9,670 bases of DNA from a virus (IMGVR_UViG_2778261058_000021:1-9670), one strand, 5' to 3'; shown: positions 1 through 8,711, counted from the first letter of the stretch. Numbers and translations are program-made. Notes: generated by a model not told the origin, from the sequence alone.

Positions 1-996
1 CTAACGAACCAGCCAGACCAGCATCAGGATAATCGCGACTAACAGTATCCACAGCACGGGACGCGTTGCCATATTTTGCAACGTGTCCATCATTGGTGGA
101 AAAGGATTAAGCAGCGGTTGCATATCACGCGGATCAATCCCTTTAACCCGCCGTTGATAAAGCTGATTAAGAATATCCTCGGCCTGGGCAGAAGAAAGCG
201 ATGATTGCGCAGAAAGGCCATATTTTTGCTGGATATATGCCGATAACGCCGCCAGTTCACTGGCATCTAAAGGTTGTTTTAGCGCCATCTGTAGTGATTC
301 CAGCGTCGGCGTATTTTGCTGGCTTAGCGTCTGACGCGCCTGCAGCCAGGTCACCAGATGGTTAAACAGTTTCGCTGGAATTAACTCGCCATCTTTCACC
401 CCGGAAAGTTCCAGCATCGATTGCCAGATCTGTTTGCTGGGTTCCCCCGTTGCCGCCGCAAGTTTGGTCACCAGCTGTTTAAGCGCATTGTGCTCCGCCG
501 GTAATAAAGGACGGTCGGTCGCCTCGCGCTGCTGCGGTTGCGGAATAACCATCTTCCCTTCCTGCAACAGGGTGAGAATGGTTTTTAATTGCTCCGGTGA
601 GAGCTGATTCAGCGGCGTCTGACCAAAGTTATGACGGATATAATCCGTGACCGCCTGACGATTATTCCCCAGACGTAAATACTCCCCTAATTGCGCTAAA
701 AGCTGGCGGGCAGAATGGCTTTTTTGCGCGGCCAGCAGACGTTGCGCCAGGTTGTGTTCAGCGGCAGGGAAGTGACGCGAAAGCAGCGGTGAATCTCCCG
801 ACAGACCAATATCGTGCCTGATACCCGCCCACAGTTCTGCTCTTTGCTGTTGCGTCAGTGAGGTCACTTTCGTCATTAAGCTTTCCAGCGAAGTACGTTG
901 CTGACTGGATAAAGGCTGATTGCCCGCGCCAGACGGCAGGTTATCTCCCTGACCTGGTGGCTGCCCAGGAGGAGGGCCGGAAATAGGTTGTATCAT
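1..996 (-). CDS. flk: flagella biosynthesis regulator Flk (complete, 331 aa)
   Basis: Complete ORF, ATG at 996-994 and TAG at 3-1. Pro/Gly/Gln-rich N-terminus (MIQPISGPPPGQPPGQ) and C-terminal hydrophobic anchor (VLWILLVAIILMLVWLV) match my recollection of E. coli Flk. Not verified by search. Confidence 0.85.
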   Translation of the reverse strand: MIQPISGPPPGQPPGQGDNLPSGAGNQPLSSQQRTSLESLMTKVTSLTQQQRAELWAGIRHDIGLSGDSPLLSRHFPAAEHNLAQRLLAAQKSHSARQLLAQLGEYLRLGNNRQAVTDYIRHNFGQTPLNQLSPEQLKTILTLLQEGKMVIPQPQQREATDRPLLPAEHNALKQLVTKLAAATGEPSKQIWQSMLELSGVKDGELIPAKLFNHLVTWLQARQTLSQQNTPTLESLQMALKQPLDASELAALSAYIQQKYGLSAQSSLSSAQAEDILNQLYQRRVKGIDPRDMQPLLNPFPPMMDTLQNMATRPVLWILLVAIILMLVWLVR

Positions 997-1135
997 TACG
1001 TATCCTTATACCTGAAATCTTCGCAAGTATGCCTGGCCGCGAGATTATGGCACACTTGTCCGGTTAACTCTCGTCTCATACAGGTAACACAAACGTGAAA
1101 ATCCTTGTTGATGAAAAAGATGATTGGTTAATTTA

Positions 1136-1159
1136 TTGATATAAAAGGATTTATATCAA
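1136..1159. promoter_or_regulatory. perfect inverted repeat TTGATATAAA-N4-TTTATATCAA in the divergent flk / orphan-gene intergenic region; candidate operator for a dimeric regulator
   Basis: Read directly from sequence: ttgatataaa agga tttatatcaa. Function is inferred only. Confidence 0.3.
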
Positions 1160-1315
1160 CGTATGTCCACGCAGTGACCACATTTTCGAGATATAGTTAA
1201 AGCCCGTAAAATATGCGGGCTTTATAATTCTTGCTTTGCCCTCTTTTCAAACCATAAAATTTGTGTGCCTTTTTGGGGTGGTTAGTTTTATCTTTGATAT
1301 TATGGAGAATTATTC

Positions 1316-2056
1316 ATGCTTCATTGGGTTTGTATAAAATGTCAGTCTAAAAATTCTACGAAGGAATCAGTGTGTCCTGCGTGTGGAACTTCTTTTTGGT
1401 CGACGCAGAAAAAAGAAAGGAGAGGGTGTTTATTGTTAGTTGTAATGTTCTTCGTTGTGTTTTGGGTTATTGGGCAATTATCCGGAAACGAATCCGATTC
1501 ACAGGTAAATAATATTCCATCGAAAGATCATATTAGCGATGAACTTGCTTTATCTGGAGTAGACAAGGCGAAACCGTATTCTTTTGTGCGTTATGATGAC
1601 ATAAGTTATGCGGGACGAAAGAGATTTAAGGTTTTTATAGTGTCGCCTGAGTCTCAAGATTTAGAATCAAGAGCTTCGACAGCAATGGCCGCGGCTATTG
1701 AGTGGCAGAAAGAGAAGAGAGCTGACTTTGTATCTGTGTTGCTTCTACCTACGGAAAATTCTGAAGGTAGTTATCGGTTGGCAATGGTTGATTATTCTCC
1801 GGATGGTTGCGGAACTGGTGCTGTATGTGATAATAAAAAATGGACTATATTGTCTAGTGACGTAATATTAACGAAATCGCAACTTCAATCTATATCCTTG
1901 TGGAATGAGTATAAGAAAAAGTTTGCGGGTAATGATGGGATTTTGGATTTAAAGGAAGAAAAGAAATTGAAGCAGTTTATTAGTAAACAGCTAAATATTC
2001 CTGTTAAGGATGTATTTACTCCAGATATTTTTCCTTTAAAGAAAATCGAAGATTAA
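1316..2056 (+). CDS. hypothetical membrane-anchored protein: N-terminal CxxC-N11-CxxC zinc ribbon, basic stretch, one TM helix, ~190 aa extracytoplasmic domain; AT-rich, probably horizontally acquired
   Basis: 246-aa ORF with GGAG about 10 nt upstream of the ATG. CIKCQ...CPACG motif, then QKKERRG, then hydrophobic CLLLVVMFFVVFWVIGQL. Codon usage is A/T-rich unlike flanking genes. A hairpin/terminator follows. I recognise no family. Confidence 0.7.
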   Translation: MLHWVCIKCQSKNSTKESVCPACGTSFWSTQKKERRGCLLLVVMFFVVFWVIGQLSGNESDSQVNNIPSKDHISDELALSGVDKAKPYSFVRYDDISYAGRKRFKVFIVSPESQDLESRASTAMAAAIEWQKEKRADFVSVLLLPTENSEGSYRLAMVDYSPDGCGTGAVCDNKKWTILSSDVILTKSQLQSISLWNEYKKKFAGNDGILDLKEEKKLKQFISKQLNIPVKDVFTPDIFPLKKIED

Positions 2057-2133
2057 CAAAATAAATAGACGAGACTGAATTAGTATTATTGTAATCTTTA
2101 ACTGGTACCCTCACTTGTGAGGGCACCAAAAAG

Positions 2134-2170
2134 AAAACCCGCAGTTTTTACGCTGCGGGTTTCTGCTTTG
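2134..2170. terminator. bidirectional rho-independent terminator between the convergent orphan gene and hok
   Basis: Stem cccgcag (2138-2144) / ctgcggg (2153-2159) with an 8-nt loop; A-run upstream and T-rich run downstream give a U-tract on both strands. A second hairpin, ccctcac-tt-gtgaggg, lies at 2108-2123. Confidence 0.6.
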
Positions 2171-2248
2171 GGATGTGTATAGGGTGCCTTATCAGTCTTG
2201 CCCTGACAACCGATTGACGGGGGAATCTCTTCCCCCGTCGCGGTTTCC

Positions 2249-2389
2249 TTACTGTTTACACTGTAAGAACGCCGCAAACTCCGCTCCCCAGAAGCTCATC
2301 CGTATCTCACACAGCGAACCGTGCAGCATCCAGATGATAAGGATCGCCGTCACGCAGAACGTGATGGCTGTAAGCGATTTTTGCGACAT
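2249..2389 (-). CDS. hok: Hok/Gef-family type I toxin (46 aa); not in the supplied ORF track
   Basis: Minus-strand translation MSQKSLTAITFCVTAILIIWMLHGSLCEIRMSFWGAEFAAFLQCKQ: N-terminal TM helix, then SLCEIR and AAFL.CK motifs typical of Hok proteins as I recall them (closest to HokA). AAGGAG lies 7 nt upstream of the ATG. TAA stop at 2251-2249. Confidence 0.8.
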   Translation of the reverse strand: MSQKSLTAITFCVTAILIIWMLHGSLCEIRMSFWGAEFAAFLQCKQ

Positions 2390-2611
2390 AGCGCTTGCTC
2401 CTTTTTTGGGGAGGCGCTAACCTATCACTTGTCTAGGGTAGATGGTTAGGGCCTCGGTTAAACAAAAATGTTTTCCGGGGCCTTTCCACATCCGGCCTTC
2501 AGGTATTCCCTCCAGCCATCAGCCGAAAGGCACCCGCGCGAATTCTAGCCTGGTTTTTTCCCTTGTTTCAATCCGTTGAGACTTATCAGCCTTCTGATGT
2601 AGAATTCCCGA

Positions 2612-2676
2612 CCGCAGACATTATTCAGTCACGCATTTGATACATGCTTCCGCCGGCGTTCGCGCCGGTTTTTTTG
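2612..2676 (+). ncRNA. candidate Sok-like antisense RNA (about 65 nt) opposite the hok leader
   Basis: Plus-strand -35 TTGAGA (2576-2581), 18-bp spacer, -10 TAGAAT (2600-2605), then a strong intrinsic terminator at 2651-2675. The size matches the known Sok RNA. Position relative to the true hok mRNA 5' end is not established. Confidence 0.25.
2651..2675 (+). terminator. rho-independent terminator on the plus strand
   Basis: Stem ccggcg (2653-2658) / cgccgg (2663-2668), loop ttcg, followed by seven T (2669-2675). No plus-strand protein gene ends here, so it probably terminates a small RNA. Confidence 0.55.
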
Positions 2677-2692
2677 TCCTGTTGCTGCGTAG

Positions 2693-2949
2693 ATCGTTAT
2701 GTGCGATCGATGCGCTGTATTGATCCTTTTTTCAGTTTAATTTTGACTCTTAATTTTACGCAGGCCGCGCCGCGTCTGGCTTCGTTGTTTGACGATTTTT
2801 TGATGCGATCCTCTCGTGATCGCTTTTTGTCTCACGTAAAGTATAAAAACCCTTTTAATATCATGCAGTTTTATTGCTTCTGCCATTTGTGCGATCGTAA
2901 AAACCTCTCTGAAAACTGCAAAAAATTTCAAAACGTGAAATTTCTGATC
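2693..2949. repeat. GATC (Dam methylation site) cluster in AT-rich non-coding DNA
   Basis: Seven GATC at 2693, 2705, 2722, 2807, 2818, 2893 and 2946 within about 257 bp (roughly one expected by chance); several sit in a recurring GCGATCG context. AT-rich runs are interspersed. Confidence 0.5.
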
Positions 2950-3055
2950 TTCGCTTTTCCCTCAGTTGCTGCGCGGGCTGGCGGTCATTTTTGCACGGCA
3001 GAAAACTGAAAAAGTGTTTCGACACAAAACCCGCGGGTTGGAGGGGGTAGCGCGG

Positions 3056-3099
3056 TTTACGTCACCTCACGCTTTACGTCACACCGTTTACGTGGTGTG
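3056..3099. repeat. three direct TTTACGT repeats with an embedded inverted repeat cacacc-N8-ggtgtg
   Basis: gTTTACGTcac (3056-3066), cTTTACGTcac (3072-3082), gTTTACGTggt (3086-3096); inverted repeat at 3080-3099. Lies just beyond the 3' end of the tail operon. Confidence 0.4.
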
Positions 3100-3151
3100 C
3101 GCATACAGCGCCGGAATGGCACGCAGAACGCATTAATCAGGTGGCAGATAT

Positions 3152-3179
3152 GGAAAACGCACGGCCTGAACCGTGCGTT
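3152..3179 (-). terminator. candidate intrinsic terminator of the minus-strand tail operon
   Basis: Perfect 9-bp stem aacgcacgg (3156-3164) / ccgtgcgtt (3171-3179), loop cctgaa. On the minus strand it is followed by only a short U-tract (about 4 U). About 40-60 nt downstream of the stop at 3218. Confidence 0.35.
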
Positions 3180-3217
3180 GCGTGATGGGGCGTTTATGTG
3201 GATTTTATGCCCGGTGA

Positions 3218-4915
3218 TTAGGCGATAAGGTCGCCGTATTTTTCGCGAAGGCTTGTAGCCTGTTGGGCGTCTGCGGCAAGTTCGCTGCTGTTTGTTGGTG
3301 CGCCAGTGTTGCTGTGGGTGTGGTTTGCAGTGTGTGTGGCCAGCAACTGAACCAGATCCAGAATATCAATCAACAACGTCAGCAGATTAAGTCCGGATTT
3401 TTCCCGTGAGCCACCGCGCCCAATAAATACAGTCGGGGCAGTAAATTCCAGGCCGCCGTCCGCCCGGCATGTTCTGCGGCCTCCCACGTTTTCGGTGAGG
3501 TTATGCTCGATGGTGGATGTCGCCCCTTTGAGTTTAGTCAGCAAATCCTGCGCTACCATCTGGATATGCTCACCGGCTGCGATCGCATAATGGCCAGTAG
3601 TAATGTGTTCTGTCTGACCTGTCATCAGCTTGCTGGTTCCCAGAACGCTGGTTATGTCGTTTGCCTGTACTGTTGTTGTTCTGGTTGTTGTTGTGCGTTC
3701 TTCCTGATCGCTGTTAATGGTTCGCCTGGCTGAATGCTCCCTGATTTGCTGGTCGGTTTCTCTGTGCCAGCTTCCGTCAGTCGTGACACGCTGAAACACT
3801 TCTGCGCGCTGTTGTTGCAATTGTTCGCCGGGCTTTACATTAGGCAGGTTATGACCAGCGGGTAAGATTTGCCTGATGACAGGTTTATCCGGTCGTCCTT
3901 CAATGTTGGATATTTCCACGATGGTGCCAGCCGGCGGGTAGGCAAAACATCCCGCCTCACTGCCAGCCATGGGGACGGGGAGCGGTACTGCCGGGTAAAC
4001 GGGCGTATCGCTTTTATCGTTGCCGTTCTCATCAAGCAACTGCACATCGACGGCGTAGCGTGGGCGGAAACTGTCGGCCACATCGCCCAGGGTGGCGGGC
4101 TCCGTTGGTGCAATGACGCGCGCCAGCCGGGTATGTAGCGTACCGCTGGCCAGTTCCGGAAACTGTGTTTCCATTTGTCTGCGTAATGGTGATTTGGAAA
4201 CAGGGCTGCCCGTGGCGGTAAGGCGCTCCCATGTCAGGGTCATTTTCTCGTTGTTGAGGGCTACACGGGTAATGCGCCCGGCCGGAAGGTTCACGCCCGG
4301 TCGCACAGTTTCCATAAACATGATGTCGATGCTGTTTCCGCCGCTTTGCCCGAGTGTGTACTGTTGCGGAATATCCGGCATTGTAATACTGGCAAATCGT
4401 GAATCAGCTGCGCTTCCCACAAATACAGAACCGTCCGGCATAGGGTGCCAGACGTAATCGCTGATACTGAATGCTCGCCCCAGTTGGCTGAGCAGTTGTG
4501 CTCCGCTGCCGCTGTGGGTGATGTAGGGAGTTGGTATGCTGACGTAATCCGCATCTGGCGTGATGAAAACGATGCCGCTTTGTTTACCCAGATTATCGAG
4601 TACCCCCCGTAACGTCGGGTGTTGCATGGAGCAAGGGAAATCAAAATCCAGCACAGCAGCTGCTTCACGGATAAAAAGGCGACGTGAGCCATTTTCAGCA
4701 GGTTGATCGCGCTCAATGTAGCCGGAGAAATAGCGCCATGCTTCACCGTCACGGCCGAGATCAATTTGTACCATTGCGCCGGCAAGGGGGTGTTCGGGTG
4801 ACAGATTGTTAACAGAAATGAAGCCGCGACCGGCGGCATTCAGGGTAAGAACAAGGTTTATATCGGCAATTTCCACCCGTTCGCCATTAATCATGCAGCG
4901 TTGTATCAATTTCAT
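3218..4915 (-). CDS. uncharacterised phage protein (565 aa); C-terminus has a metal-site-like HTANHTH motif resembling fibre/spike tips
   Basis: Long ORF whose ATG overlaps the upstream stop as ATGA (4912-4915); GAGGAAGG-like SD upstream. C-terminal ...LLTLLIDILDLVQLLATHTANHTHSNTGAPT resembles HxH tip motifs I recall in P2 gpV (LHTHKHPGDSGG) and in lambda Stf / T4 gp37 (GAHAHS). No match to P2 sheath or tube proteins. Confidence 0.6.
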   Translation of the reverse strand: MKLIQRCMINGERVEIADINLVLTLNAAGRGFISVNNLSPEHPLAGAMVQIDLGRDGEAWRYFSGYIERDQPAENGSRRLFIREAAAVLDFDFPCSMQHPTLRGVLDNLGKQSGIVFITPDADYVSIPTPYITHSGSGAQLLSQLGRAFSISDYVWHPMPDGSVFVGSAADSRFASITMPDIPQQYTLGQSGGNSIDIMFMETVRPGVNLPAGRITRVALNNEKMTLTWERLTATGSPVSKSPLRRQMETQFPELASGTLHTRLARVIAPTEPATLGDVADSFRPRYAVDVQLLDENGNDKSDTPVYPAVPLPVPMAGSEAGCFAYPPAGTIVEISNIEGRPDKPVIRQILPAGHNLPNVKPGEQLQQQRAEVFQRVTTDGSWHRETDQQIREHSARRTINSDQEERTTTTRTTTVQANDITSVLGTSKLMTGQTEHITTGHYAIAAGEHIQMVAQDLLTKLKGATSTIEHNLTENVGGRRTCRADGGLEFTAPTVFIGRGGSREKSGLNLLTLLIDILDLVQLLATHTANHTHSNTGAPTNSSELAADAQQATSLREKYGDLIA

Positions 4916-6172: not shown

Positions 6173-6750
6173 TCTGACTCTCCAGCCTGAAAAGCGCGGA
6201 TGTCGGCAAGATTATTCAGGCTATCCAGCACGTCCTTCATCTGTCGCTGACGCTGATAAATCTCGTCATTGCGATCGACCTGCGCCTGCGCCAGTGCTGT
6301 TGCCAGTTCTTCCAGTTCCGGCATCGACAGTTTCACCTGTTGATTATCGGCGTCACCCCATGCCATAACGTCCCGAGCTGTGTCGGATTTTGATGCCATC
6401 ACCACCGGATAAAGGCGAGCCAGTGAGTCGGGGCCAGCGTTCCAGATGTGGCCGTTCCATTCGAACGTGAACGGCTTCGCTTCCTGTTCTGTGCGCCACA
6501 CCTCGATTTCCCGCTTTTTGGCATCTTTTGCCGCTGCGATAAGTTCCGGCGTGACGGTGAACGGGGCGATTTCGCCCCATTTGCCGCTCTGTAACTCTTC
6601 CCAGATGCGCTGGCCTGTCGGTGCGGTATCGTCCTGCATGGCGGTATACGGGACGAATTCCGTTTCACCTTCAAATAACACCTCGCAGTCAACCGCATCA
6701 TTTTCGAGATAATGGGCGTTTCTGATGCCCTTTACCGCTCTGATTTTCAT
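6169..6750 (-). CDS. uncharacterised phage tail-associated protein (193 aa); possibly a chaperone/assembly factor for the adjacent fibre-like protein
   Basis: AAGGAG 8 nt upstream of the ATG at 6750; follows the 648-aa fibre-like gene after a 14-nt gap. Lacks the C-terminal motif of P2 gpG-type Tfa (W/Y..VL..RVD...WP), so a chaperone role is inferred from position only. Confidence 0.6.
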   Translation of the reverse strand: MKIRAVKGIRNAHYLENDAVDCEVLFEGETEFVPYTAMQDDTAPTGQRIWEELQSGKWGEIAPFTVTPELIAAAKDAKKREIEVWRTEQEAKPFTFEWNGHIWNAGPDSLARLYPVVMASKSDTARDVMAWGDADNQQVKLSMPELEELATALAQAQVDRNDEIYQRQRQMKDVLDSLNNLADIRAFQAGESE

Positions 6751-6764
6751 GTTCTATCTCCTTG

Positions 6765-8711
6765 TTACTCAATGCGCACGAACAAACAGATAAAGCCTCT
6801 GTCGCCATACGTTGCACGATAACCTGACAGGGCCTGATAACGACCGGGAAAACTGAATGCCCCAGCACCACCCGCCTTTACTGAAGGTGTGGAACCGTAT
6901 GTCCCGGAATTATTAATTGCACAGTCGATAGCCACAGGACCAAGTCGCGACCCCGCCACTACATCCCCAAGGCCAATTTTTATTTCCTTATCCCCTGCCG
7001 CTGTTCCCTGATAGACCGCGAGAATAAGAGAGCCAACTGCCGGATATTTGTAATATGAGTACGGGCCATTGCCCGCTGTCCGGGACAACAAGAACGCCAG
7101 CGAATCGCCGTCGTAAATAATGGGGCTTACTGTTGCATTCCAGTTGTTTCCACTCCAGCGGTAAGTCAGGCGATGAATGCTGTGTTCGCCTTCGTAATAC
7201 TGGTTAAAACACAGCAGCGTTTTGAATTTGCGTATTGCATCTGATTCGTCATTATCAAAGGGCGACCACATCACATCCATGATGCCGTTAAATTTCGTGG
7301 TGCCCGCCAGTAGTGTGGAAGAGTCCGCAATACTGACCGCATAACGCCCCGGGGTGGCCTCTTTCAGCCATTCAGCAAAATCAGCCTGACCGTTAAATGC
7401 CAGGGCTTCGGTGCTGGTAAATGCCTGACCGAATCCATACATGCCGGACAGCGCCAGCCTGCCCGGTGTACGATCCCAGATATCAGATTGCGCGTCTTTT
7501 ACAGTTGTGTTGCCAGTTAATGGAGTAAGATCTCTCCATACAACAGGGGCTCCGTAGTCAGAGCCGCGAACGCAGGAAAGAATACGTCCGTCTCTTCCGT
7601 AAAACAGAATAAGTTTTGTTGCTGTCTGGCTGGTTTTGTCATTCTGCCAGTTGTCCAGCCAGATAAATTCGACCACACCAGTTAAATCACCTGATGACAT
7701 TGATGATGTGTAATACCGACCCGGACCTGTGTTCATGCATATCAACGCAAGCTCATCAAGATTTGTAATGCCGAGCACCATCCCCTCGTGCTCTGTCATT
7801 CCGTATCCAAATGCCCCCGGTAGCGCCAGCCTGCCTGGTGTGCGGTCGCGGATATTGCTCTGGGGCTCCATCGTCGCAGCCGCTTTCAGTTCAAGTTCCG
7901 TGCGCATGGCTTCAGGTGTGTCCAGTGCCAGTAATGCGCGGGCTTTTTCTGACAGCGGAGAGAGAGAAACATTCCCGTCCTGATTAAAGTACAGAAGATT
8001 ATCTGCCCGTTTCGTCAGTTCACTGATTGCCGTCAGCAAATCGTTCAGCGGTTGTTTACCCGCCAGCGCGTTAATGACCGTCGCCGAAAAGTTCGGGTCA
8101 TTGCCCAGCGCCGCTGCCAGTTCGTTCAGTGTGTCCAGGGCTTCCGGTGATGAGTCAACCAGTGCGGCGAGCAGTTTGCGAACAAACGCTGCGTTCGCCA
8201 TCTCCAGCCCGACCGCATCGTCTGGCGGAGTTGGTGTGGTTGGCGTGCCGGTGAACGCCGGGCTGTCCAGTGGCGCTTTTTTGTTTATTTCAGGAAAAAG
8301 ATCTACCTGCCAGCTCTGTGGAGGAACGGTAATTTGCGCAGCCTGAGCAATGCCGCTGTATATAATTGTGAAATTACGAATAAGTGATTCGCCTGTTACT
8401 TTTTGTTGAACAGGCGTCTTTATTACGCCGCATAGTGTTCCGCTGGCCTGATGGATAAGGCAAATCCAGTCATAACTGAATGCACAGTCATCAGGAACAA
8501 CCGCGCTACACACAATATTGTTCGGGCTTAACTGGCCGTAGGTCAGTTCATTCACAGCATATGTGATTTTTTCTTCCGGAACGGTATTATCTTCGCGCGC
8601 TGGTTCCCGCTCCATCAGAGCAAAAATAATAGCGTCAGGGCGTGCAGGTAAATTACTGGCTGTGCATTCAGCAACCCACTTTTCAAATGCTTTCGTCAAC
8701 AGTGCGCTCAT
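6765..8711 (-). CDS. tail fibre-like protein (648 aa) with an unrecognised ~145-aa N-terminal domain, a conserved fibre collar segment and an internally duplicated C-terminal region
   Basis: Segment NKKAPLDSPAFTGTPTTPT...AALVDSSPEALDTLNELAAALGNDPNFSATVINALAGKQP matches the conserved segment I recall in P2 gpH and lambda Stf. The C-terminal half holds two diverged copies of a domain starting QS.I.DRTPGRLAL.G..G.G. Starts 6 nt after the tfa stop. Confidence 0.8.
   Translation of the reverse strand: MSALLTKAFEKWVAECTASNLPARPDAIIFALMEREPAREDNTVPEEKITYAVNELTYGQLSPNNIVCSAVVPDDCAFSYDWICLIHQASGTLCGVIKTPVQQKVTGESLIRNFTIIYSGIAQAAQITVPPQSWQVDLFPEINKKAPLDSPAFTGTPTTPTPPDDAVGLEMANAAFVRKLLAALVDSSPEALDTLNELAAALGNDPNFSATVINALAGKQPLNDLLTAISELTKRADNLLYFNQDGNVSLSPLSEKARALLALDTPEAMRTELELKAAATMEPQSNIRDRTPGRLALPGAFGYGMTEHEGMVLGITNLDELALICMNTGPGRYYTSSMSSGDLTGVVEFIWLDNWQNDKTSQTATKLILFYGRDGRILSCVRGSDYGAPVVWRDLTPLTGNTTVKDAQSDIWDRTPGRLALSGMYGFGQAFTSTEALAFNGQADFAEWLKEATPGRYAVSIADSSTLLAGTTKFNGIMDVMWSPFDNDESDAIRKFKTLLCFNQYYEGEHSIHRLTYRWSGNNWNATVSPIIYDGDSLAFLLSRTAGNGPYSYYKYPAVGSLILAVYQGTAAGDKEIKIGLGDVVAGSRLGPVAIDCAINNSGTYGSTPSVKAGGAGAFSFPGRYQALSGYRATYGDRGFICLFVRIE

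Follow-up and report, generated by a model that had tools for sequence, protein, structure and literature searches.

The block that holds the GATC cluster is, as judged by homology, the cos packaging region of an HP1-like (Peduoviridae) prophage, with a cut site that is predicted. In the window, i.e. the whole 9670-bp stretch of viral DNA analysed here, the cluster spans positions 2692-2949. We tentatively favour the reading that the cluster is a conserved part of the cos region and serves as a Dam/SeqA-responsive overlay that would be unneeded for terminase recognition. The region is of interest mostly because of the contrast between the phage and a P4-like satellite that has the same cos arm.

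The prophage and its cos region

The prophage is an HP1-type member of the P2 family (Peduoviridae), as shown by the gene order of the complete related prophage in E. coli AJ1 and the presence of an orf35 homologue. The order in AJ1 is int, C, cox, early genes, a P2 A-type replication endonuclease, parM, ogr and the leftward portal/terminase genes of the P2 type, continued by scaffold, capsid and tail genes, the HP1_ORF34 protein, a 565-aa protein, the non-coding stretch, hok, DUF4875 and flk. The AJ1 prophage has a ParM/ParR-type plasmid segregation pair after the replication gene (L003 20189-21467), which is unusual for an integrating P2-family phage.

In the window the 565-aa protein is encoded by the last gene of the late operon (3218-4915, minus strand). 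It is a homologue of the HP1 baseplate protein orf35: tblastn matched it to orf35 of HP1 and HP2, K139 orf39 and ESSI-2 gp01 (47% for the nearest named phage protein), and the gene upstream of it contains the HP1_ORF34 Pfam domain. Annotations of this gene (6817-8514 in L002) vary from 'type VI secretion system Vgr family protein' in one RefSeq genome to 'hypothetical protein' elsewhere and 'baseplate protein' in phage records; the protein has no Pfam match. A hairpin formed by AACGCACGG and CCGTGCGTT and followed by a T-run (3156-3179, minus strand) is probably the terminator of the tail/baseplate operon. It is kept in the satellite described below.

Between the end of this minus-strand operon and hok/sok lies a non-coding stretch of 830 bp. 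Part of it, a non-coding block of about 400 bp that runs from ~3100 down to ~2690, is conserved in the alignment of Escherichia and Edwardsiella prophages. Beyond ~2690 the sequences are unrelated, both in comparison with Edwardsiella and with locus L019. An open reading frame of 121 aa (2644-3009) was considered and rejected as coding, since conservation is arranged in blocks without codon periodicity and since indels of 1 and 2 bases separate Escherichia from Edwardsiella.

When the phage collection was searched for sequences similar to the block, only one weak match of 81 bp was obtained. Therefore, relatives were reached via the neighbouring orf35 homologue. When 11 elements were compared from a common anchor, each motif of the cos cores had its counterpart in window positions 3001-3100. 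The shared layout consists of two to four CACG(G/T)AA repeats, a C/T-rich cohesive end that follows C(C/G)GC(A/G), and then TTTTTTCAG. The latter motif is located 30-45 bp inside cosL of HP1, CFP3, PV94 and ESSI-2, and at +46 from cosL in P2.

The cohesive end predicted from this homology is GCGGGTTGGAGGGGGTAG (3033-3050; reverse complement CTACCCCCTCCAACCCGC). In sequence as well as position it aligns with the 16-nt end of PV94, a 15-mer of ESSI-2 and the annotated cosL of HP1. For PV94 the cohesive ends were mapped experimentally as 16-nt 5' overhangs (PMC3986222). The PV94 record starts at the place equivalent to the predicted cos, and its last 16 nt, CTCTTCCTCACCCGCC, occupy the same place as CTACCCCCTCCAACCCGC in the window. 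The predicted cos is found 167-184 bp past the orf35 stop, compared with 192 bp in HP1, 198 bp in ESSI-2 and 174 bp in K139; the linear records of ESSI-2 and K139 end at these distances past the homologous gene. In HP1 the annotated left cohesive end is followed by attP and int. The site in the window agrees with an HP1-type cos in its location past the orf35 homologue, with the late tail operon on one side and attP/int on the other, in the core layout described above and in the recurrence of the segment in the satellite.

Two observations concern the ends of the relatives. The ESSI-2 record has the 15-mer CTACACCGCACCCGC / GCGGGTGCGGTGTAG at both of its ends; thus, the cohesive end was apparently written twice. 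The K139 record starts ~30 nt beyond the position that is equivalent to the mapped cos of PV94. According to the PV94 paper (PMC3986222), terminally redundant ends were reported for K139, yet its cos core is clearly homologous to that of PV94.

The side of cos facing orf35 carries the direct repeat (C/G)NNTTTACGT(CAC) in three copies (3051-3093; TTTACGT / ACGTAAA). These copies correspond to the CACGGAA(A/T) repeats of HP1, CFP3, K139 and PV94 and are candidate terminase-binding sites.

An earlier, sequence-only reading of this DNA had suggested, among other options, a packaging or origin remnant. The packaging part of this suggestion is upheld by the cos region. The word remnant does not apply, since the region is intact and conserved, and the origin part fails for want of DnaA boxes. 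It is highly improbable that the cluster represents a replication origin, or what is left of one, of the oriC or P1 oriR type with sequestration by SeqA. Clustered GATC sites in AT-rich DNA would agree with such an origin, but the DnaA-box matches in 2600-3220 amount to three with one mismatch, out of 17 across the window, and none is exact. Likewise, there are no 13-mer-like repeats, the GATC contexts are not repeated AT-rich units, and the folding of the single strands is unexceptional (z of -1.1 and -2.05). Moreover, the family encodes a nicking protein of the P2 A type, and in P2 the origin lies inside the gene of this protein itself.

GATC sites and repeat blocks of the arm

The seven GATC sites start at 2692, 2705, 2722, 2807, 2818, 2893 and 2946, so that the cluster begins one base before the previously given start of 2693. 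Its 258 bp would be expected to hold 0.44 sites at the rate outside the cluster, or ~1.1 from local composition (Poisson P = 4e-7; ~7e-5 with a rough correction for scanning). The original impression of a density far above chance is thereby substantiated. The whole window has fewer GATC than expected (23 versus a mean of 32.8 in dinucleotide shuffles), and none of the other 4-bp palindromes is enriched in the cluster region. As a background, the GATC density of the complete AJ1 prophage was determined; the cluster is its densest 300-bp window, with seven sites and four in the next best. The recurring contexts and the AT-rich setting that had been pointed out are also present: TGTGCGATCG has two copies (2700-2709 and 2888-2897), the cluster also contains GATCGTTA and GATCGTAA, and the GC content of the cluster region is 34-48% versus 52-56% in the flanks. 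The immediate flanks of the seven sites are unlike each other (AGATCG, CGATCG, TGATCC, CGATCC, TGATCG, CGATCG and TGATCT).

All seven sites are on one side of the predicted cut, in the "left" arm, at distances of 84-340 bp. This side becomes the left end of the mature genome and runs on to the cargo and attP. The arm comprises ~340 bp in all and contains repeat blocks that form nested inverted pairs (2728-3013). The outermost pair consists of TTTTTCAGTTT (2728-2738) and AAACTGAAAAA (3003-3013), the second of CAGGCCGCGC (2761-2770) and GCGCGGGCTG (2971-2980), the third of CTCACGTAAAG (2831-2841) and CGTGAAATTT (2934-2943), and the innermost of TGCAGTTTT (2864-2872) and AAAACTGCA (2912-2920). 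The centre of the arm (2840-2872) is AT-rich. These blocks are kept in Edwardsiella and in the satellite, and the GATC sites occupy the spacers between them. A distal trio (2692, 2705 and 2722; 2692-2725) marks the outer edge of the conserved cos block, and its site at 2722 abuts the TTTTTCAGTTT block. The pair GCGATCctctcgtGATCGC (2807-2821), whose sites are 11 bp apart, adjoins the CTCACGTAAAG block at ~212-226 bp from the predicted cut and is a perfect inverted repeat, GCGATC-N7-GATCGC. Other spacings within the cluster are 13 bp and 17 bp. The site at 2893-2896 occupies the spacer that separates the AT-rich centre from the GAAAACTGCAAAA block. The site nearest to cos (2946-2949, at ~84 bp) adjoins the CGTGAAATTT block; an arrangement of AGATC followed by AAATTTCAC, as at this site, is also found in HP1 and in Pasteurella CFP3.

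Several other functions of the arm were considered and rejected. A structured RNA was discarded because of the lack of compensatory changes: for seven diverse copies the RNAalifold covariation term was -0.11, all long-range pairs are invariant inverted repeats, and the only Rfam match is sok, outside the block. A single-strand origin or a cruciform was rejected on the basis of the DNA folding scores given above. An attP arm was dismissed since ~1.6 kb of variable cargo separate the cluster from attR. In the block there is no Ogr-type late promoter (TGT-N12-ACA), and no sigma-70 promoter-like site was found in 2690-3040. No IHF site within one mismatch occurs in the block; there is a weak match with two mismatches, and the Edwardsiella version TATCAACTGTTTT is, by eye, closer to IHF.

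Since the pairs are invariant and the strands fold unremarkably, we infer that the blocks are protein-binding sites on duplex DNA. They are likely recognition elements for terminase and host factors, in a layout that resembles lambda cosB.

Conservation of the GATC sites

Conservation was assessed in 26 distinct Escherichia and Edwardsiella copies. Among the columns of the GATC sites 19 of 28 are invariant, compared with 39% of the other columns. The site at 2722 and the pair at 2807/2818 do not vary in any of the 26 copies; 25 copies retain 2705, and 23 retain 2692, the least conserved site. Between the window and Edwardsiella, five of the seven GATC are kept versus 23% of other 4-mers (P=0.008). 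The Edwardsiella position aligned to 2893 is not GATC and is replaced by another GATC ~12 bp away, and in the region of the distal trio Edwardsiella has two sites 11 bp apart. The offsets of the Edwardsiella sites downstream of the orf35-like gene are almost equal to those in the window, although the protein is only 60% identical.

The sequence-only reading had proposed to look for homologous clusters in related prophages. Such clusters were indeed found, in Edwardsiella, the Vibrio phages K139 and PV94, and relatives from Aeromonas, Salmonella and Cronobacter, in all of which the left arm is enriched. In K139 and in PV94 the cos arm is the densest 300-bp GATC window (five sites with three in the next, and six with four, respectively). 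For seven lineages, the first 350 bp after cos contain 6, 2, 5, 3, 6, 4 and 3 GATC, where 0.8-2.0 are expected (combined Fisher P=1.6e-6). HP1 has only two and CFP3 only three sites in these 350 bp, and neither is significant alone. A GATC pair with a spacing of 10-11 bp recurs after cos, at +228/239 in E. coli and Edwardsiella, +210/220 in K139, +196/206 in PV94 and +231/241 in Aeromonas P05B; the pair is shared by five genera, and the GATC cores are the sole sequence that its versions have in common. The other sites differ in number and position from lineage to lineage, and the enrichment is nevertheless retained.

An accumulation of GATC that is neutral or due to chance, without any function, is very unlikely in view of these data. 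The HP1 and CFP3 lineages, taken singly, would be compatible with it. It conflicts, however, with the P of ~7e-5 in the window, with the top rank of this window in three phage genomes, with site conservation above background and with the positionally conserved pair across genera.

All hosts in which the cluster occurs belong to gamma-proteobacterial orders that we take to be Dam+ and SeqA+. P2 was inspected for GATC near cos and has none. Pseudomonas phi3, whose host presumably lacks Dam, has no GATC within ~190 bp after the cos-like core, but its cos arm is much shorter. Hence, the Pseudomonas relatives are only weakly informative as a Dam-negative control. HP1 and ESSI-2 encode Dam-family methyltransferases; no methyltransferase gene is present in the annotation of the AJ1 prophage, which represents the E. 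coli prophage type.

Variable cargo and hok

The phage is integrated between flk (1-996, minus strand) and pdxB. Prophage-free E. coli genomes match the window only up to 1117, which places the junction of prophage and chromosome at about this position. Variable cargo lies between cos and attR (1117-2535; 1.9 kb between arm and attR) and includes a DUF4875 gene (1316-2056, plus strand), hok (2249-2389, minus strand) and a sok-like RNA identified by Rfam (2401-2535, minus strand). The predicted hok promoter is at 2571-2542 on the minus strand. A strong terminator (2652-2677, plus strand) is located just outside the conserved block, where the cargo begins.

The content of this slot varies. It holds hok and DUF4875 in the window (1117-2690), a RuvC-family gene and hok in a copy integrated beside serS, and two other ORFs with DUF4875 in L019 (6287-8172). 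In Edwardsiella the slot is empty and a tRNA-Leu serves as attachment site. The stretches compared also include L001 5320-5990 and L007 6275-6845. The segment flk-DUF4875-hok (700-2300) is 99.7% identical to E. coli STEC308 and the cos region (2400-3300) 93.7%, which suggests a recombination junction in the vicinity of hok and the cos block. A promoter-like sequence TTGAGA-18-TAGAAT (2576-2605, plus strand) diverges from the hok promoter prediction, and the terminator at 2652-2677 lies downstream of it. The interval 2576-2677 on the plus strand could yield a transcript of ~65 nt, for which the Rfam search gave no match.

The cluster had been linked to the hok promoter in the initial reading, and we reject this assignment. 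A methylation-sensitive regulator of hok/sok or of other cargo would have only proximity in its favour, the predicted hok promoter being 120-400 bp away, and is scarcely credible because the conserved block ends at ~2690, the terminator intervenes, and the same GATC sites are found where hok is not. In Edwardsiella, which is devoid of hok, a tRNA-Leu is located ~280 bp past the block, and in one E. coli copy other ORFs replace hok beside the same block. Conversely, the hok gene of the satellite adjoins the same cos region, which there has no GATC. Regulation of hok, an origin and chance are all poorly supported as explanations of the cluster.

A P4-like satellite with the same cos arm

Two weaker E. 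coli matches to the block proved to be a P4-like satellite. Its genes comprise an icd-like gene, a toprim primase, an integrase, ogr/delta and hok, followed by the cos region. Among 5426 complete E. coli genomes nine have the satellite, and several of these nine have the phage as well; the loci are L049 (1-7815), L050 and L052 (NZ_CP091018.1, ~1603700-1615900), and L051. In strain STEC307 the satellite, which is located beside tRNA-Arg, also has a P2-family (major) capsid gene and a second integrase.

Neither the cos core nor any repeat block of the arm is missing from the satellite, and its repeats of the 3051-3093 type are nearly identical to those of the phage. GATC is absent from 590 bp in three copies, although with ~1.2 sites expected this zero is not a significant depletion. 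The comparison is most direct in STEC307, where the co-resident phage has all seven GATC and the satellite none, while the 18-nt core is identical and 97 of 110 surrounding positions are shared. At the far end of the satellite arm (L049 ~6720-6765), where the phage has its GATC trio, two extra TTTACGTC repeats resemble those beside the cos core.

Since a satellite with the same blocks lacks all GATC sites, these are evidently not needed for recognition by terminase. This shows that the constraint on GATC is apparently specific to the phage and that the sites can be separated from the recognition elements of what would be a shared terminase. P2 cos, too, has no GATC; therefore, packaging as such would do without them, and their role could lie elsewhere.

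Such a role is addressed by a reading in which the GATC are Dam/SeqA sites with a job other than packaging, i.e. sequestration or organisation of new phage circles, or insulation of cos/attP from transcription. We regard it as rather unlikely. The conservation and enrichment of the sites would fit it equally well, P2 cos works without GATC, and replication of the GATC-free satellite would be driven by its toprim primase, in contrast to that of the phage by a nicking protein. On the other hand, the sites alternate with blocks that a satellite needs in common with the phage if it is to be packaged, they keep fixed distances to the cos cut across genera, and neither origin features nor a promoter were found in the block.

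The sites might also be cores of binding sites for a phage-specific protein, so that their conservation would be independent of methylation. The perfect inverted repeat at 2807/2818 and the two copies of TGTGCGATCG are in line with this, and the satellite would have no need of such a protein. This reading is nevertheless distinctly improbable: the flanks of the seven sites differ, the cross-genus pair shares just the four bases of GATC, one site has moved by ~12 bp in Edwardsiella, and site number and position vary by lineage while the enrichment stays.

Proposed role of the GATC sites

A Dam/SeqA role appears to be the best reading of the sites, because the pair at one helical turn is conserved, the flanks are variable, and the hosts presumably all possess Dam and SeqA. 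In the overlay that we tentatively favour, the GATC sites would be Dam targets and their methylation state would set the accessibility of the arm. Freshly replicated circles would be hemimethylated, and SeqA could bind pairs such as the conserved 11-bp pair. Methylated or SeqA-bound GATC would modulate access to the neighbouring blocks, and use of cos by the phage might thereby be coupled to the replication or methylation status of its DNA. The principle would be that of Dam control at the P1 pac site, but built differently.

A more far-reaching version can be formulated, which we put forward as speculation and consider quite unlikely. In HP1-like phages of Dam+ hosts, hemimethylated and SeqA-bound GATC would act as an epigenetic gate that bars cutting and packaging of new phage circles until Dam methylation is complete. 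The satellite, having shed all GATC from its otherwise identical arm, would escape the gate and gain priority for the terminase of its helper. If true, the gate would add a methylation-based dimension to the competition between helper and satellite.

To our knowledge, P1 pac is the only case of Dam methylation controlling phage packaging, and we know of no cos-type site under such control. A literature search for a link between Dam or GATC and cos, or for GATC clustering at cos in HP1- or P2-like phages, returned none in the papers covered. With its conserved Dam sites in the cos arm, and with a satellite whose copy of this arm is free of them, this widespread phage family offers a directly testable system. 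It could show whether methylation state times packaging and whether satellites exploit this timing. In addition, a predicted cos is now located for this prophage family and its satellites, and the cluster is no longer assigned to hok.

Comparison with known systems

Promoter switches controlled by Dam (Mu mom/OxyR, pap/Lrp, agn43) differ from the cluster, since no promoter-like site is present in 2690-3040 and OxyR-like matches have at least three mismatches. The likeness to an OxyR-regulated promoter such as that of Mu mom, suggested earlier, is thus not borne out.

In P1 pac, TGATC(A/G) hexamers flank the cut on either side inside a gene, and packaging is by the headful. Common to both are a cluster of seven GATC at a phage packaging site and the idea that methylation would gate terminase. 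For P1, Dam methylation at pac is required for packaging (PMC12707154). The resemblance does not extend to a pac site as such, as had been considered: the hexamer TGATC(A/G), on either strand, is found at one of the seven sites only (2818, GTGATCGC), all sites lie to one side of the cut and are intergenic rather than distributed over both flanks (~160 bp), and the terminase is of the P2 cos type.

Like lambda cosB, the arm is an array of repeated sites that adjoins the nicking site towards the left end and has an AT-rich centre that could bend. The two are not related in sequence, and the IHF match is weak here and better in Edwardsiella. We know of no Dam-site cluster in lambda cosB.

SeqA clusters (oriC, the dnaA promoter and P1 oriR) are similar in their high GATC density and in pairs spaced by one helical turn (11 bp). 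In SeqA clusters two or more GATC lie on one helical face at distances of up to ~31 bp, and the spacings of 11, 13 and 17 bp found here agree with this. In contrast to SeqA clusters at origins, the present one is found without DnaA boxes or origin repeats and in the context of a packaging site.

The P2/P4 system offers a parallel in that a P4-like satellite has a cos core nearly identical to that of its presumed helper, and TTTTTTCAG is common to P2 as well. It differs in the sites themselves: P2 is free of GATC near cos, whereas here the helper has seven and the satellite none.

Among the closest counterparts are the HP1-type cos sites of HP1, HP2, K139, PV94, ESSI-2, phiO18P and P05B. They are likewise situated between orf35 and attP/int and have the same core layout, and several of these relatives possess a GATC-enriched left arm. 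Identity outside the motifs is low, and the lineage described here stands apart from them by having the most GATC sites (seven) and by its 1.9 kb of additional cargo.
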